A stretch of 32,000 nt of DNA from Patescibacteria group bacterium (lineage in GTDB: Bacteria > Patescibacteriota > UBA1384 > XYA2-FULL-43-10). The position numbers were made by a program, and so were the translations under genes. Below are positions 8,888 through 25,981 of this stretch, one piece after another (the stretch's first letter is position 1; each line of letters starts with the position of its first letter). The stretch spans positions 30,001 through 62,000 of the forward strand of contig JBAYVT010000003.1 of assembly GCA_041674405.1 (NCBI GenBank), in the 5' to 3' direction. The notes below the pieces were generated by a model, which was given only the letters and a program-made list of their open reading frames with translations, was not told where the DNA came from and did no database searches.

Positions 8888-8916
8888 TTGACCCTGACTC
8901 AAAAATAAGCTATAAT
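8888..8916 (+). promoter_or_regulatory. Near-consensus promoter TTGACC-N17-TATAAT for tRNA-Lys
   Basis: Hexamers lie at 8888-8893 and 8911-8916. A 9-bp leader hairpin (atgtttttg/caaaaacat, 8921-8943) precedes the tRNA. Confidence 0.6.
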
Positions 8917-8955: not shown

Positions 8956-9030
8956 GGATTGCTAGCTCAATGGTAGAGCAGTGGCCTTTTAAGCCATTGG
9001 TTCTGGGTTCGAGTCCCAGGCAATCCACCA
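8956..9030 (+). tRNA. tRNA-Lys (anticodon UUU), CCA encoded
   Basis: Cloverleaf: acceptor GGATTGC/GCAATCC, D-arm AGCTCAATGGTAGAGC, anticodon arm GTGGC-CTTTTAA-GCCAT, T-arm CTGGGTTCGAGTCCCAG, 3' ACCA. Confidence 0.93.
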
Positions 9031-9063
9031 AAAAAACTTTGACCTTGCGTCAGAGTTTTTTTG
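9031..9063 (+). terminator. Terminator hairpin after tRNA-Lys
   Basis: An 8-bp stem actttgac/gtcagagt (one G-U pair) is flanked by an A-run and a T-run. Confidence 0.6.
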
Positions 9064-9075
9064 TTGGAATTGGAC

Positions 9076-9104
9076 TTGAACATTTTATGATTTTATTGTA
9101 TTAT
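9076..9104 (+). promoter_or_regulatory. Near-consensus promoter TTGAAC-N17-TATTAT driving the G+C-rich unit
   Basis: Hexamers lie at 9076-9081 and 9099-9104 with an exact 17-nt spacer. The composition switches from AT-rich to G+C-rich immediately downstream. Confidence 0.55.
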
Positions 9105-9660
9105 TACGCGTGTCCCATGATCATAGCACACTTCGAAACAAGGGGCTGAGCGCATGGAGCCGGTAACAAAGTCTATTGAGAAGATCCTCGACCGGTTGCC
9201 GAGTAATCCCAATCCGGGATTCGGCATTGTCCTGATTTGGCTCTTGCTAAGACAGGACACTGGTGGTCGAGCGAAACGGTGCGACAGTGACCAGGAAGAT
9301 CTGACGATTGCGGCCAAAATGATCGTTCAGACCGGGAATGTCTTAGCATCCCTTGGGCTGATCCTGCACGCACAGCAGACCGAACCTCTGAGGGAGGTAT
9401 GCAACGACGAAGTACTCGCAGCAATACCCCCACGCGTGGCTACCAAGATTCATGAGGAAATCTTGGGTGCTGCAACTTCTACCCTGTTGGGAATGAAGAC
9501 CGATCGTCAACGGCGCTTTCACGTTAGAGACTATATCGCTCAAATTCCCTGCACAAATCCTCAAGACGCGGCCGAAAAGCCGCAAGAACCGCAACCTACA
9601 TCGAAGTAGAATACGAAGTACCGGTCGCTCCAGCTCACAAGCTGGAGCGCCGTTGTTTTT
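9105..9660 (+). other. G+C-rich transcription unit: either an orphan 151-aa CDS (9154-9609) or a large structured ncRNA
   Basis: Two 60-nt lines counted here have 32/60 G+C, against 18/60 in the adjacent lepA line. The unit is bounded by a promoter and a terminator. The plus-strand ORF has a G-rich first codon position and a possible AGGGG SD. ORFs of 74-107 aa also run on the opposite strand. Confidence 0.4.
9626..9660 (+). terminator. GC-rich hairpin plus T-run; shared convergent terminator with lepA
   Basis: The stem cgctccagc/gctggagcg (9626-9634 and 9641-9649) has loop tcacaa and is followed by ccgttgttttt. The lepA stop at 9659-9661 abuts it. Confidence 0.7.
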
Positions 9661-11440
9661 ACTCACTTCTTAGAACTTTTATAAAAACATCGGATGGAAT
9701 ATTTACCTTACCGATCATTTTCATTTTCTTTTTCCCCTTTTTCTGCTTGTCAAGAAGTTTGTTCTTACGAGTGACGTCGCCTCCATATAGCTTGGCAGTC
9801 ACATCCTTGCGCATAGCAGGAATTCTTTCAGAAGCAATGATTGTGGCCGAGATTGCCACCTGGATTTTAACTTCGAAATTCTGGCGCGGAATAAGATCTT
9901 TTAATCTTTCAACGATTCTTCGCGCTTCCTTCTGTGCTTTTTGCGAATTAATAATAAAACTCAGCGCGTCGACACGATCCTCAGCAATCAGAATATCGAT
10001 TTTAGATAGGTCCGCACTACGATAATCAATCATCTCATAATTAAGAGAGGCATACCCGCGAGAAATACTTTTTAGCTGGTCATAATAATCAATAATAAGT
10101 TCAGCAAGCGGAATTTCATACTTTATAACCACCCTATTATCATCAAAATATTCAGTATTTTTGTAAATTCCGCGCTTACTTTGCGTTAGATCCATGATTA
10201 CACCAATGAATTCTTTCGGAGTAATGATTTCGAGAGTAGCCCAAGGTTCAAAAATTTCGCGGTATTCGTGCGATGCTGGTAGATCGGCTGCCTTTTCAAC
10301 GATCCTTGCCTCCCCATTCAACATTGTTAATTTATAAATAACAGTCGGGCTAGTGATTACAAGATCAAGGTCAAATTCGCGTTCAAGGCGTTCACGAACG
10401 ATATCGAGGTGTAAAAGTCCAAGAAATCCGCAACGAAAACCATGGCCGAGCATTTCTGATCTCTCGGCCTCGTACGATAGCGAGCCGTCATTTAATTTAA
10501 GCTTTCCGATTGCCTCCTTGAGCTCGGGATATTTGTCCGAATCGGTACAGAATATCGAAGCATAAACAAACGGCTTAACTTTTTGATAGCCCGAAAGGGG
10601 AGAGACTGCTGGAATTTTTTTCTGCGTAATGGTATCGCCGACAGACGCTTCAGAAACTTCTTTAAATCCGGTTACAATATAACCAATTTCGCCCGATGAT
10701 AGGGGAGAGTGGGGGAAATATTTTGGTTTAAAATAGCCACACTCCTCTACTTTTCCCCCACTTTTAGTCTGCATCAAAAATATCTCGTCATTATTTTTTA
10801 TTTCGCCCGAAAACACCCGGACATAAGCAACTACTCCCCGATAGGGGTCATATACCGAGTCAAAAATTAAGGCTCTTGTCTTCTCTTCTCCCTCATCATT
10901 GGGTGCTGGTACGCGTTCAATTACTTCTTTCAAAATTTCTTCCACTCCTTCGCCGGTTTTTCCCGATGCATAGATAATTTCATTTTCACGACAACCAAGA
11001 ACTTTGATAATTTCATGAGCAACTTCTTCCGGACGAGCTGCCGGTAGATCAATTTTATTTACAACCGGTATAATCTCGAGATCATGGTCTATCGCCGCAT
11101 AAAGTGTCGAAAGGGTTTGGGCTTCAATGCCCTGAGTAGCATCAACAAGGAGGATCGCTCCCTCAACAGCTGCCAATGACCTTGAAACTTCGTATGAAAA
11201 ATCAACATGACCCGGGGTATCTATCAAATTCAAAATATGTTTGCTGTATTCCATGCGAACAGGTGCAAGCTTGATAGTAATGCCGCGCTCACGCTCAATA
11301 TCCATCTGATCAAGGAGCTGCTCTTTCATCTCACGTTTTTCAACCGTGCTGGTAATTTCCAGCATTCGGTCAGCCAGCGTTGACTTGCCGTGATCAATAT
11401 GCGCGATAATACAAAAATTGCGGATGTTTTTTTCTTCCAT
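9659..11440 (-). CDS. lepA: Elongation factor 4 (LepA)
   Basis: G-domain motifs AHIDHGKST, DTPGHVDF and NKIDL are present. The C-terminus is LepA-specific (…KLYGGDVTRKNKLLDKQKKGKKKM). Confidence 0.95.
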   Translation of the reverse strand: MEEKNIRNFCIIAHIDHGKSTLADRMLEITSTVEKREMKEQLLDQMDIERERGITIKLAPVRMEYSKHILNLIDTPGHVDFSYEVSRSLAAVEGAILLVDATQGIEAQTLSTLYAAIDHDLEIIPVVNKIDLPAARPEEVAHEIIKVLGCRENEIIYASGKTGEGVEEILKEVIERVPAPNDEGEEKTRALIFDSVYDPYRGVVAYVRVFSGEIKNNDEIFLMQTKSGGKVEECGYFKPKYFPHSPLSSGEIGYIVTGFKEVSEASVGDTITQKKIPAVSPLSGYQKVKPFVYASIFCTDSDKYPELKEAIGKLKLNDGSLSYEAERSEMLGHGFRCGFLGLLHLDIVRERLEREFDLDLVITSPTVIYKLTMLNGEARIVEKAADLPASHEYREIFEPWATLEIITPKEFIGVIMDLTQSKRGIYKNTEYFDDNRVVIKYEIPLAELIIDYYDQLKSISRGYASLNYEMIDYRSADLSKIDILIAEDRVDALSFIINSQKAQKEARRIVERLKDLIPRQNFEVKIQVAISATIIASERIPAMRKDVTAKLYGGDVTRKNKLLDKQKKGKKKMKMIGKVNIPSDVFIKVLRSE

Positions 11441-16206: not shown

Positions 16207-18009
16207 CTATGTTTTCGCCTTAAAATATTTGAGAAAATCTTCTTCGTTAATTGTTTCTTTCTTTATCAGTTCGTCAGCCAATTTTTCAATGATTGATTTA
16301 TGGGTATCAATAATTTTCTTGGCTTTTTTTCTGCCTTCATCGATAAATCTGGAAACTTCTTGGTCGATTACGGCGGCAATATTTTCGCTATAATTGCGCT
16401 GCTCGGCAAGTTCTTTCCCCAAAAACGGCATTTCTTCCTTGTGGCCATAAGTCTGTGGACCTAATTTTTCAGACATTCCAAATTCAACAACCATCTTGCG
16501 CGCAAGAAGAGTTGCTCGTTTCAGGTCGTTTTGTGCTCCAGTTGTTATTTTATTTGAACCGAAAAATTCTTCTTCGGCAACGCGGCCCGCAAGAAGTGAA
16601 GCAATTTCGTCCTCAAAATAATCTTTGGCTTCGAGCCTGCGGTCTTCTGTCGGCAAATTCCAAGTATATCCTAGAGCCATGCCGCGAGAAACTATCGAGA
16701 TTTTGTGAACCGGATCGGCATTTGGCAAAATATGGCTAACAACAGCATGGCCTGACTCATGGATAGCGGTAATTTTCTTTTCATGGTCAGACATCTTCTT
16801 GCTTTTTCGCTCTGGGCCCATCATCACTTTCTCGATTGCCTCTTCCATGTTTTCTTGGGTTATGGTCTTGCGGCCAGCCCGAGCTGCTAAAATAGCTCCC
16901 TCATTTGCTAAATTTTTAAGATCAGCCCCAGAGAAACCGGCGGTTGTGGCGGCAATTCTTGAAAGATTAACATTTTTTTCGATTGGCTTATTTCGAGTAT
17001 GAATTTTTAAAATTTGTTCACGTTCGCTTCTGTCTGGAAGATCGATAGTAATGTGCCTGTCGAAGCGGCCCGGACGAAGAAGTGCTGGATCAAGTACATC
17101 TGGCCTGTTTGTAGCAGCCATGACGATGACGTTATCACCGGTATCAAAGCCGTCCATTTCAACCAAAATTTGGTTTAATGTCTGCTCACGTTCATCGTGG
17201 CTTCCACCGAGCCCAGACCCGCGCTGGCGGCCGATTGCATCCATTTCATCAATAAAGACGATTGCCGGTGCGCTCCTTTTCGCTTTAGCGAAAAGATCGC
17301 GCACTCGGGACGCACCAACACCAACAAACATCTCGACAAATTCAGATGCGGAAATTGAGAAGAAAGGAACACCTGCCTCACCAGCAACCGCCTTTGCAAG
17401 CAAGGTCTTACCGGTACCAGGAGGCCCCACAAGAAGGACTCCTCGTGGAATTTCTGCGCCCAAATCGCGAAACTTTTTTGGTGACTTCAAAAACTCGACT
17501 ACTTCGCGAAGTTCCTGCTTCGGTTCCAACAGCCCGGCGACATCATTAAATGTAGTTTTGCGCCCCAGTGAAAGACGGGCTCCAGATTTACCGAAACTCA
17601 TCGCCTTCATATTTTGCCCCTGGGCGGAACGAAGCATCCACCAAAAAAATGCGGCGATCAAAATCAAAGGCAAGAGGGTATATAGAAATATCGACGACCA
17701 GGCAACAGATGAGCTTGTGTCTACAACTTTGATATTGACCTTGTCGGATGTAATACCATATTCATTCAAGCCAACGCCATTTTCCTTGTATGCCTGCTCG
17801 GTACCTTCGCCCTTAACGTTAGCGGTAACCTGATTATCTTTCACCGTAACTTGGTCGATTTGGCCATCCTGGACCTGTTTCGCAATCTGCGAGATATCAA
17901 CCTGAGTTGGTGTTTTTGGCCGGCTGGCATAATAACTTCCGACAAGAACCGCTGCTATAAATATAATAATGATCCAATATACTGCACGGTTTCCAGATTT
18001 CTGATTCAT
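16207..18009 (-). CDS. ftsH: ATP-dependent zinc metalloprotease FtsH
   Basis: Two N-terminal TM segments, Walker A GPPGTGKT, Walker [12 protein letters not shown] and the zinc site HESGHA. SD AAGGAG lies upstream. Confidence 0.96.
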
Positions 18010-18024: not shown

Positions 18025-19023
18025 TCAATTCTTAGTCTTCAATACAATGATTTTACCACGCTCAAGGCTAACCTGTAAATGATGGGGGAGAGGCAAACTT
18101 TTCCGTCCCTCTTTTTTATATAGTAGCGTTCGCACGTTTTCAATATGAGAATAGTTAATATCTTCACCGCCACCAAGGTACTCGACAGACAGGCGAAGGG
18201 TAAGTCGTGAAAGCGACGGGCTGAGAGTTGCCCATTTTTTATAATTAAGCACAATTTCACTATTACCCCTTTTTTCAATGATCTGCCTAAGTTTATCTTC
18301 TGTCACAGACTCAAGGAAATCATAATCGTCCTCGATAGCCCGCGACGTGCTTCCTAGTGCTTCAATAACATTGGGGTTGATTTTTTTAAGCTGTGGAAGG
18401 ATTCTGTGGCGAATTTTATTTCGCAGAAAATCCAAGTTAAAATTTGATTTATCTGTCCTGTACTTGATATTTTTTAATTTAAGGTATTCCAAAATATCTG
18501 TGCGTGAAAATTTGAGTAGGGGACGGATAAAATTTTCACGCTGAGAGGGGATAGATTTAAGCCCCTTTAAACCGGTACCTCTGATTAATCTCTGTACCAG
18601 GGTTTCGGCAAGGTCATTTGAATTATGTGCAAGAGCGATTTTGGCCTCTCCCCTTTCGGTTTTTAAAATTTTTTCGAAGAACTCATAGCGGGCATTCCTC
18701 GCTTCTTCTTCGCTGGCTTTTTTATTTTTTGGTTTATTGTTCCAGTCAGCTTCAATGAGTTCTACGCCATATTTTTGGCATAGTTTTTGGACAAATTTCT
18801 TGTCTCTCTCGCTCGCCGCTCCCCTCAACTTATGATTGAAATGGCATGCTTTTAAATTATTTTTTAATTTCGAGCGTAGAATTGCGAGAATATCAAAAAG
18901 GCAGACAGAATCTGGTCCGCCGGACAAGGCAACAATTACCGTGTCGCCTTCCCCTATCAACCTCTCAGCAATGATGTTTTTGTACACCTTGATAATTAAA
19001 TTTTTTTGTGAGATTTTTGGCAT
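18025..19023 (-). CDS. tilS: tRNA(Ile)-lysidine synthase
   Basis: PP-loop SGGPDS is present with the TilS layout (…LAHNSNDLAETL…). Confidence 0.88.
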   Translation of the reverse strand: MPKISQKNLIIKVYKNIIAERLIGEGDTVIVALSGGPDSVCLFDILAILRSKLKNNLKACHFNHKLRGAASERDKKFVQKLCQKYGVELIEADWNNKPKNKKASEEEARNARYEFFEKILKTERGEAKIALAHNSNDLAETLVQRLIRGTGLKGLKSIPSQRENFIRPLLKFSRTDILEYLKLKNIKYRTDKSNFNLDFLRNKIRHRILPQLKKINPNVIEALGSTSRAIEDDYDFLESVTEDKLRQIIEKRGNSEIVLNYKKWATLSPSLSRLTLRLSVEYLGGGEDINYSHIENVRTLLYKKEGRKSLPLPHHLQVSLERGKIIVLKTKN

Positions 19024-19234: not shown

Positions 19235-19311
19235 TGCGGGGTGGAGCAGCCCGGTAGCTCGCATGGCTCATAACCATGAGGTCGTTGGTTCAAATCCAAC
19301 CCCCGCGACCA
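19235..19311 (+). tRNA. tRNA-Met (CAU), initiator-like
   Basis: GCGGGGTGGAGCAGCCCGGTAGCTC…CTCATAA…GGTCGTTGGTTCAAATCCAACCCCCGCGACCA closely parallels bacterial tRNA-fMet. The 1-72 pair is weak (U-G). There are only two G-C pairs next to the anticodon loop rather than three. Confidence 0.85.
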
Positions 19312-19385: not shown

Positions 19386-19462
19386 GGCAGGGTAGCTCAG
19401 ATGGTTAGAGCGTGGGACTCATAAGCCCGAGGTCGTGGGTTCGATCCCCACCCCTGCTACCA
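19386..19462 (+). tRNA. tRNA-Met (CAU), elongator-like
   Basis: GGCAGGGTAGCTCAGATGGTTAGAGC…ACTCATAAG…GGTCGTGGGTTCGATCCCCAC…CCCTGCTACCA. The D-arm resembles elongator Met. The A31-G39 and G1-U72 pairs are non-canonical. Confidence 0.8.
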
Positions 19463-25906: not shown

Positions 25907-25981
25907 GGGCCCATAGCTCAGTGGTAGAGCGCCCGGCTCATAACCGGTTGGTCGCAGGTCCGATCCCTGCTGGGCCCACCA
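25907..25981 (+). tRNA. tRNA-Ile2-like (anticodon CAU, probable lysidine substrate)
   Basis: GGGCCCATAGCTCAGTGGTAGAGCG-CCCGG-CTCATAA-CCGG…GGTCGCAGGTCCGATCCCTGCTGGGCCCACCA. The 3' half closely resembles E. coli ileX, including the C4-G69 and C5-G68 pairs. The T-loop reads TCCGATC, which is unusual at position 55. Confidence 0.75.

Follow-up and report, generated by a model that had tools for sequence, protein, structure and literature searches.

A GC-rich unit between tRNA-Lys and lepA in a Patescibacteria genome is very probably a small, fast-evolving protein gene

In dual-function RNAs such as SgrS/SgrT and RNAIII/hld, the open reading frame (ORF) takes up only a small portion of a regulatory RNA. 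Hotspots of gene turnover between conserved core genes have been described (Oliveira et al., 2017; PMC5635113), and ORFan genes are typically AT-richer than their genome (PMC3514957). The locus considered here lies in a stretch of 32,000 nt (the window) that is part of a 152-kb Patescibacteria metagenome-assembled genome contig (ENA ERZ27247358). On the plus strand of the window a holin_4_2-family gene and tRNA-Lys(UUU) are followed by a GC-rich unit (9105-9660), which is met by the convergent lepA gene. An earlier note on this DNA had described the unit as compositionally foreign and had left it between an orphan gene and a large structured RNA. Comparison with the same site in close relatives indicates that the segment is, very probably, a monocistronic protein gene of a tiny, fast-evolving family at a variable tRNA-Lys/lepA hotspot.

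The interval between tRNA-Lys and lepA measures 628 nt, and its sole content is one ORF, present as the earlier note gave it:

9154..9609, plus strand: 151-aa orphan protein gene, NCBI hypothetical protein WC080_02395, product predicted to be all-helical

When 9105-9660 is shuffled with its dinucleotides preserved, 0.8% of the shuffles yield an ATG-initiated ORF with 151 or more codons, and base composition differs by codon position within the frame (chi-square 22.2, p = 0.002). The pattern is the universal one, which the host genes also show: T is low at position 1, and at position 2 G is low and A high. The G-rich first codon position that had been singled out as special is ordinary for this genome (G at position 1, 0.32). 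The product had been said to resemble nothing recognized, and this was borne out. The protein matched no Pfam, NCBIfam, PHROGs or PADLOC profile at E values up to 10, and its best matches among PDB sequences reached only E = 1.3-1.5. It matched itself alone among 5.8 billion protein clusters and had no true match besides itself among 1.84 billion representatives; one extra match in the latter set, the 3390-aa repeat protein P0002, was judged spurious. No homologue was found in phages and plasmids (at the protein and DNA level), viral contigs or metagenome contigs, and no paralogue of the unit is present inside the window.

Direct searches returned only the protein itself; homologues came through the conserved neighbor. 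A search with the LepA protein led to relatives with 87.5-90% identical LepA, and their contigs were fetched. Four contigs of three lineages could be read at this site (L084, L085/L086 and L087), and L083 stops at lepA. Every close-relative contig that reaches past lepA bears a convergent ORF at the same position:

L085/L086: homologue of 144 aa, 26% identical to the window protein over 143 aa, pairwise E = 7e-6

L087: homologue of 148 aa, 27% identical to the window protein, pairwise E = 7e-6

L084: homologue of 61 aa, cut by the contig end, 38% identical to the window protein, E = 9e-10

The L085 and L087 proteins are 46% identical to each other (E = 1e-40). Conserved motifs comprise an N-terminal PGF with a hydrophobic stretch, D.Q.R, and a C-terminal A.E.PQE. 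All family members that were seen belong to one narrow Patescibacteria clade, with LepA identity of 85% or more, and sit without exception between tRNA-Lys and the lepA 3′ end. In the set of GTDB representatives, the closest LepA proteins have 66-77% identity. A profile search of the 5.8 billion clusters gave no family members beyond the known homologues. Neither tblastn nor blastn detected a homologue of the unit in 79 other loci of the genome collection, and a profile hidden Markov model run against six-frame ORFs of at least 40 aa found none in those loci, matching only L084-L086. The designation as an orphan gene stands, with diverged homologues in close relatives.

The homologues carry the evidence for coding. 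The frame is open in all of them, with a homologous start and stop and no frameshift; in L084 it is open for 61 codons to the contig end. A comparison of units by tblastx, which is ungapped, was of no use. Smith-Waterman alignments of the ORF frames (+1/+1) were set against 17 other frame pairs. The ORF frame scored 64 against at most 38 elsewhere in one comparison and 88 against at most 37 in another, with z values of 8.1 and 14.9 against shuffles. Identity at codon positions 1/2/3 in three pairs was 0.39/0.51/0.33, 0.51/0.61/0.28 and 0.55/0.67/0.36, so that the order is 2 > 1 > 3 in every pair, and third positions (0.28-0.36) are at the level of saturation. For L085 and L087, nonsynonymous divergence (dN) is 0.56 and synonymous divergence (dS) 2.8, a dN/dS of ∼0.2 that is only approximate because dS is saturated; the closest pair, L085 and L086, has two differences in the ORF and is uninformative for dN/dS. 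An open frame, similarity in one frame, divergence structured by codon and the conserved expression signals described below together argue for a protein gene. The stops or frameshifts in homologues that the earlier note would have held against a protein are absent, and the dN/dS signature that it would have held against an RNA is present.

The same comparisons bear on the suggestion that the ORF is spurious or decaying, without function, and open only because GC-rich DNA has few stops. No homologues exist outside the tiny clade, structure prediction is of low confidence, and the segment is generally open: the opposite strand has ORFs of 74, 86 and 107 aa, as the earlier note had observed. The antisense frames show no conservation between homologues, and two of these ORFs gave no NCBIfam or PADLOC match. 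Since the homologous start and stop are retained in four contigs of three other lineages, purifying selection is visible, and promoter, Shine-Dalgarno site and terminator are conserved, a functionless ORF is extremely unlikely.

A second alternative is a large noncoding structured RNA, like rRNA, RNase P or the OLE/ROOL type, with a fortuitous ORF. In its favor, no stretch of the window is richer in GC than the unit, the fold of 9105-9660 has z = −3.9 on both strands when the terminator is included, all homologous units fold better than dinucleotide shuffles (z = −2.6, −3.8, −2.5 and −5.0), and two small hairpins recur at matching positions. Without the terminator, the fold z is −2.7 on the plus strand and −1.8 on the minus strand, which lies inside the range of 16 coding controls (+1.5 to −4.5). 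An Rfam scan of the segment, as had been proposed, taken up to E = 10, gave no match at gathering: only tRNAs match in the window, and the best result in 9030-9700 has E = 2.6, far below gathering. Rfam searches of the homologous loci found nothing relevant. The proportion of shared minimum free energy (MFE) pairs gave p = 0.05, 0.62 and 0.06, at the null for window/L087 (0.62) and marginal for the other two pairs; MFE pairs are not convincingly shared, and therefore no conserved RNA architecture is seen. The stems listed in the earlier note all exist, some of them 1-3 nt from where they had been placed (9300-9331, 9334-9352, 9568-9583 and the palindrome 9430-9439), and the structured-RNA reading built on them is not supported. 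With a frame that stays open in all homologues although nucleotide similarity is lost, similarity confined to the ORF frame and codon-position divergence at dN/dS ∼0.2, a noncoding RNA is most improbable.

The most extreme of the fold controls, 18300-18815 on the minus strand, lies inside the ORF 18025-19023 (ATP_bind_3, TilS-like) and folds far better than its shuffles, with z = −4.5 when dinucleotides are shuffled and −2.6 when synonymous codons are.

A coding mRNA could also be under selection for its GC content and hairpins, through mRNA stability, regulation or a second, RNA-level role. One part of the unit that bears on such a dual layer lies near the end of the ORF:

9568..9583, plus strand: in-ORF hairpin GCGGC-N6-GCCGC, within the only block conserved at the nucleotide level

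The hairpin is covered by the sole blastn match between the units of the window and L085 (25 nt, 88%). Third codon positions are conserved in the C-terminal block, and the hairpin is paired in four of four homologues with one covarying pair (C:G / U:G / U:A), which in four sequences is suggestive only. High GC at third codon positions (GC3) persists despite saturation, and all four units fold better than synonymous-codon shuffles, strongly so in L085 (−4.1) and L087 (−4.6); the window unit has −2.3 and the remaining one −1.6, compared with 12 controls that average −0.7 and go down to −2.9. Against this, the value for the window is matched by 2 of the 12 controls, with a third close at −2.1, and the homologues showed no overall architecture in common. 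Each of two local helices is paired in all four sequences and has one compensatory pair, a degree of covariation that 67 of 500 shuffles also reach and that is not significant with four sequences. GC-biased gene conversion at a recombination hotspot could moreover raise GC without selection on RNA. A selected second layer is considered unlikely.

Signals for expression of the protein gene were predicted on both sides of the ORF:

9076..9104, plus strand: promoter-like site of the unit, −35 TTGAAC, 17-nt spacer, −10 TATTAT, 9 of 12 matches

9110..9131, plus strand: imperfect 22-bp palindrome (inverted repeat) GTGTCCCATGATCATAGCACAC with center TGATCA, at the predicted transcription start and 5′ untranslated region (UTR)

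9140..9145, plus strand: Shine-Dalgarno-like AAGGGG, 8 nt ahead of the ATG

9626..9660, plus strand: intrinsic terminator (hairpin 9626-9649) with a 10-bp GC-rich stem, a 4-nt loop and a T-run

The promoter claimed for the unit is present, and its layout recurs as TTGCAT-17-TATGCT in L085 and TTGCGA-17-TATATT in L087, so that TTGnnn-17-TATnnT, with an invariant TATTGTAT block, is common to three lineages. The putative transcription start was placed from this layout. The palindrome is a possible operator; it is not kept in L085 or L087, and its part of the 5′ UTR is hypervariable between L085 and L086. The Shine-Dalgarno site, suspected earlier, has counterparts in L085 (GGAGG) and L087 (AGGAG), a GG-rich site lying 7-8 nt from the ATG. 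The terminator is kept in place in L084, L085 and L087, with inner stems that differ and one compensatory pair among the four sequences; its stem has 10 bp rather than the 9 bp first counted. The T-run overlaps the lepA stop codon, and the terminator is therefore probably bidirectional. Taken as a mechanism, a sigma-70-type promoter at 9076-9104 would drive an mRNA of ∼550 nt, the Shine-Dalgarno-like site ahead of the ATG at 9154 would direct synthesis of a 151-aa product that is probably all-helical and cytoplasmic, and transcription would halt at the hairpin and T-run that would also close the convergent lepA.

The flanking genes form the two fixed sides of the junction:

8888..8916, plus strand: promoter-like site of tRNA-Lys, TTGACC-17-TATAAT, 11 of 12 consensus matches

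8956..9030, plus strand: tRNA-Lys(UUU), 74.4 bits, left conserved anchor of the variable junction

9024..9068, plus strand: terminator of tRNA-Lys, A-tract/hairpin/T-tract, an inverted repeat with 20-nt arms that are 90% complementary

9659..11440, minus strand: lepA (elongation factor 4), right conserved anchor, convergent with the unit

The promoter-like site of tRNA-Lys shows that signals of apparent sigma-70 type occur in the window genome. Its terminator, to which a homologous hairpin was aligned in L085, is predicted to set the tRNA transcript apart from the unit. Three tRNA-Met(CAU) genes are found elsewhere in the window (19235-19311, 19386-19462 and 25907-25981), the first two 75 nt apart.

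The compositional anomaly is real. In 200-nt windows, GC is 0.52-0.545 over 9100-9599, 0.37-0.44 in the flanks and ∼0.40 in the window as a whole; in 40-nt windows, it is 0.25-0.30 at 9060-9119, rises to 0.42-0.60 and falls to 0.30 at 9660. Both scans confirm the jump near 9105 and the drop near 9660 reported earlier, with sharp borders at ∼9100-9120 on the left and 9660 on the right. Over the 32 kb, GC in 450-nt windows peaks at 9143-9592 (0.538, z = 3.5), the mean being 0.402. A segment of ftsH encoding the AAA core (17182-17631) is close behind at 0.527, and the unit is therefore no lone outlier in raw GC. The ftsH value is due to codon positions 1 and 2, its GC3 being only 0.46, whereas the 151-aa ORF has a GC3 of 0.56 against 0.30-0.45 in the 31 other ORFs of the window, in agreement with the earlier remark on its third positions. 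Its synonymous codon choice is the most atypical of the 32 ORFs (z = −4.3, next −3.0). What is unique to the unit is thus its synonymous layer, GC3 and codon choice, and not raw GC. The four homologous units share this property, with GC3 of 0.56, 0.61, 0.64 and 0.60 against 0.38-0.45 in lepA. Because GC3 is high in all units despite saturated synonymous sites, a plain lack of amelioration does not explain it. Candidate explanations are selection on the RNA, import of alleles from a GC-richer pool, and GC-biased conversion at a hotspot of recombination.

These data bear on a further explanation, that the unit is recently acquired foreign DNA, the remnant of an element at the tRNA-Lys 3′ end in the window genome. 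Its GC3 and synonymous codon usage are atypical, it adjoins a tRNA, tRNA-Lys is an integration target in relatives (duplicated 3′ ends in L003, L004 and L085/L086), and ORFans often derive from integrative elements (PMC2718499). A second copy of the tRNA 3′ end CCCAGGCAATCCACCA was not found in the window with up to 3 mismatches, as the earlier note had also reported, nor was any direct repeat flanking the unit; the 628-nt interval contains no integrase or other mobility gene, its sole ORF having no family match. The check for presence or absence at the junction that had been called for showed the gene in all three readable close lineages, with no presence/absence polymorphism, and the AT-rich flanks of the unit in these relatives are homologous to those of the window.

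In L085/L086, tRNA-Lys ahead of the unit is reduced to its last 24 nt, and the sequence upstream of this fragment is unrelated and GC-rich. Such an arrangement is the footprint of a tRNA-Lys-integrated element, with the unit on its chromosomal side. The same site, homologous flanks and a position outside the L085/L086 element together indicate that the unit is no recent insertion in the window genome, and high GC3 in all copies despite synonymous saturation is unlike unameliorated recent DNA. Of the earlier claims, the compositional one holds for the anomaly and not for a recent foreign event, for which the same site and the same GC3 in three lineages give no support; the fit to a remnant of an integrated element fails on the missing att-like repeat and on the L085/L086 gene lying outside the element. 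Recent acquisition is accordingly quite improbable. The ancestor of the clade may have acquired the unit long ago, or alleles may have been imported from a GC-richer pool.

Traces of elements at tRNA-Lys were encountered in several relatives. A GC-rich motif of ∼100 nt, GGGAAGGGGTCGGGAAACGGGAGTTTCCCG, followed by a duplicated tRNA-Lys 3′ end, is present at L003:2230-2332, L085:2612-2717 (minus strand) and L086:1-106, with a degenerate copy at L087:5075-5260 (minus strand); in L003 it has the intact tRNA-Lys on one side and the repeat GTCTCGGGCGGTGTACCA on the other. It resembles a conserved end or remnant of an element that would integrate into tRNA-Lys. The motif does not occur in the window and matched neither Rfam nor viral contigs, and a scan of viral contigs for the tRNA-Lys 3′ 24-mer and the L085 element-end motif found none. 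Structured sequence upstream in L085-L087 was considered as tmRNA or RNase P and ruled out (no Rfam match, ARAGORN negative). At L004:5774-6538, tRNA-Lys and a directly repeated copy of its 3′ end, CGGGCGGTGTACCA, enclose a small GIY-YIG-like ORF; the ORF that follows has 59 aa and an N terminus that resembles, by eye only, a PurN-type formyltransferase.

Beyond the close clade, the junction is kept while its content changes. In L003, L004, L008, L009 and L013 (LepA 66-77% identical), tRNA-Lys adjoins the 3′ end of lepA across gaps of 48-765 nt with unrelated content in each genome; those of L008 and L009 contain different small ORFs that each have their own promoter and terminator. With the same flanks and different content across relatives, the tRNA-Lys/lepA junction is a variable hotspot. 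Within the close clade, it is the allele of the unit that appears to vary. LepA groups L083, L084 and L087 at 92-93% identity (L084 and L087, 92.4%), and the last 200 residues of LepA, next to the unit, are 96.5% identical between L084 and L087. Their units, by contrast, have no more than a 29-aa match in common (E = 0.014). The L084 unit groups instead with that of the window (E = 9e-10), and the L087 unit groups with that of L085 (E = 1e-40) despite a LepA identity of only 85% between these two. The discordance of the unit tree with the LepA tree suggests allele exchange or old polymorphism, and at least two divergent allele types that do not follow the LepA tree seem to be present in the clade. 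Alleles may be swapped by homologous recombination, with the conserved tRNA-Lys and lepA flanks serving as arms. The unit diverges fast but is not alone in this: between the window and L083, identity is 36-37% for other small hypothetical proteins and 89% for LepA.

Several features of this region were recorded in their own right. L085 and L086 are 97.2% identical overall, and 27 of their 40 mismatches fall in a 120-nt tract of lepA (L086:877-997), almost all of them synonymous; 8 of 21 nt differ in a patch of the unit 5′ UTR (L086:214-234), and the ORF has its 2 differences. Such clustering suggests recombination tracts. All five contigs L083-L087 end in or beside the junction: L083 at the lepA 3′ end, L084 inside the unit, L085 and L086 at the identical base 82 nt upstream of the tRNA fragment, and L087 ∼290 nt upstream of the unit. 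These breaks are consistent with strain heterogeneity or a repeat there. The LepA encoded at L087:2058-4355 (protein P0125), and also P0075, carries an in-frame insertion of ∼170 aa in the GTPase domain with a PDDEXK_3 domain (PF13366); P0004, the closest relative of L087 LepA, is without it. The insertion may be a mobile one in a core translation factor.

The best-supported statement about the product is that it is a strain-variable accessory protein at a small hotspot, probably under fast or diversifying evolution. With 10-12 residues, the hydrophobic stretch is probably too short for a typical transmembrane helix. AlphaFold2 models are all-helical, with a predicted local distance difference test (pLDDT) score of 47 from a single sequence and 43 from two, too low in confidence for use. 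A role related to conflict would be speculation.

Some observations weigh against the protein-gene account as a whole. The family consists of three full-length lineages and one partial copy, and its dN/dS is approximate. The tree incongruence rests partly on the 61-aa fragment of L084, and a rate burst in one lineage could mimic it. The low pLDDT values mean that structure prediction backs no specific function. Transcription and translation, allele exchange and a biological role are inferred from sequence comparison. The persistent GC richness of the family and the excess mRNA folding, strong in L085 and L087 and unremarkable in the window allele, are left unaccounted for. One way to accommodate the last two would be a replaceable cassette, its divergent alleles swapped between related Patescibacteria under conflict-driven diversifying selection and its GC and mRNA hairpins selected and not foreign leftovers. 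This proposal is tentative and rather unlikely; if true, it would make the unit a coding gene with a second constraint at the RNA or DNA level.

How the protein gene compares with described systems can now be stated. It shares with OLE, GOLLD, ROOL, HEARO, RNase P and tmRNA a GC-rich island with several stems, a tRNA neighbor, a promoter and a terminator, and differs from them in having no covariance-model match, a protein-coding signature and no conserved architecture. A GC-rich island beside a tRNA in an AT-rich genome thus need be neither a structured RNA nor fresh foreign DNA. Like a dual-function RNA, the unit would be a coding transcript with signs of selected secondary structure, but its ORF occupies the transcript, and nothing points to a target or function at the RNA level.

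As with tRNA-targeting integrative elements, relatives have duplicated tRNA-Lys 3′ ends around small inserts: a remnant of ∼165 nt in L003, the GIY-YIG-like ORF in L004 and the 24-nt tRNA fragment in L085/L086. The window unit differs in having neither att repeat nor integrase, and the L085/L086 unit lies on the chromosomal side of the att remnant. The resemblance to turnover hotspots (PMC5635113) extends to two conserved bounds (tRNA-Lys and lepA), variable content, an adjacent tRNA and recombination tracts nearby. In contrast to those hotspots, the junction is tiny, with one gene of ∼0.45 kb; in the close clade, the allele of one family varies and not the gene content; and exchange at the junction is inferred from a single tree incongruence.

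ORFan genes are a further match: the gene is short, fast evolving, restricted to a narrow clade, beside a tRNA integration site and annotated as hypothetical only. It belongs to a new but tiny family of a familiar kind, its ORF already in NCBI as a hypothetical protein. A singleton by sequence search, it could be decided between coding and RNA through the relatives reached by way of the conserved neighbor lepA, and this small, uncharacterized Patescibacteria family marks a tiny hotspot between two conserved genes. Set against the pattern for ORFans described in PMC3514957, the family is GC-richer, in all four copies and despite saturated synonymous divergence. It counters the usual picture of AT-rich ORFans, in that high GC3 outlasts synonymous saturation, and if GC3 reflects selection or GC-biased conversion at the hotspot, the family would be a compact test case in reduced genomes.

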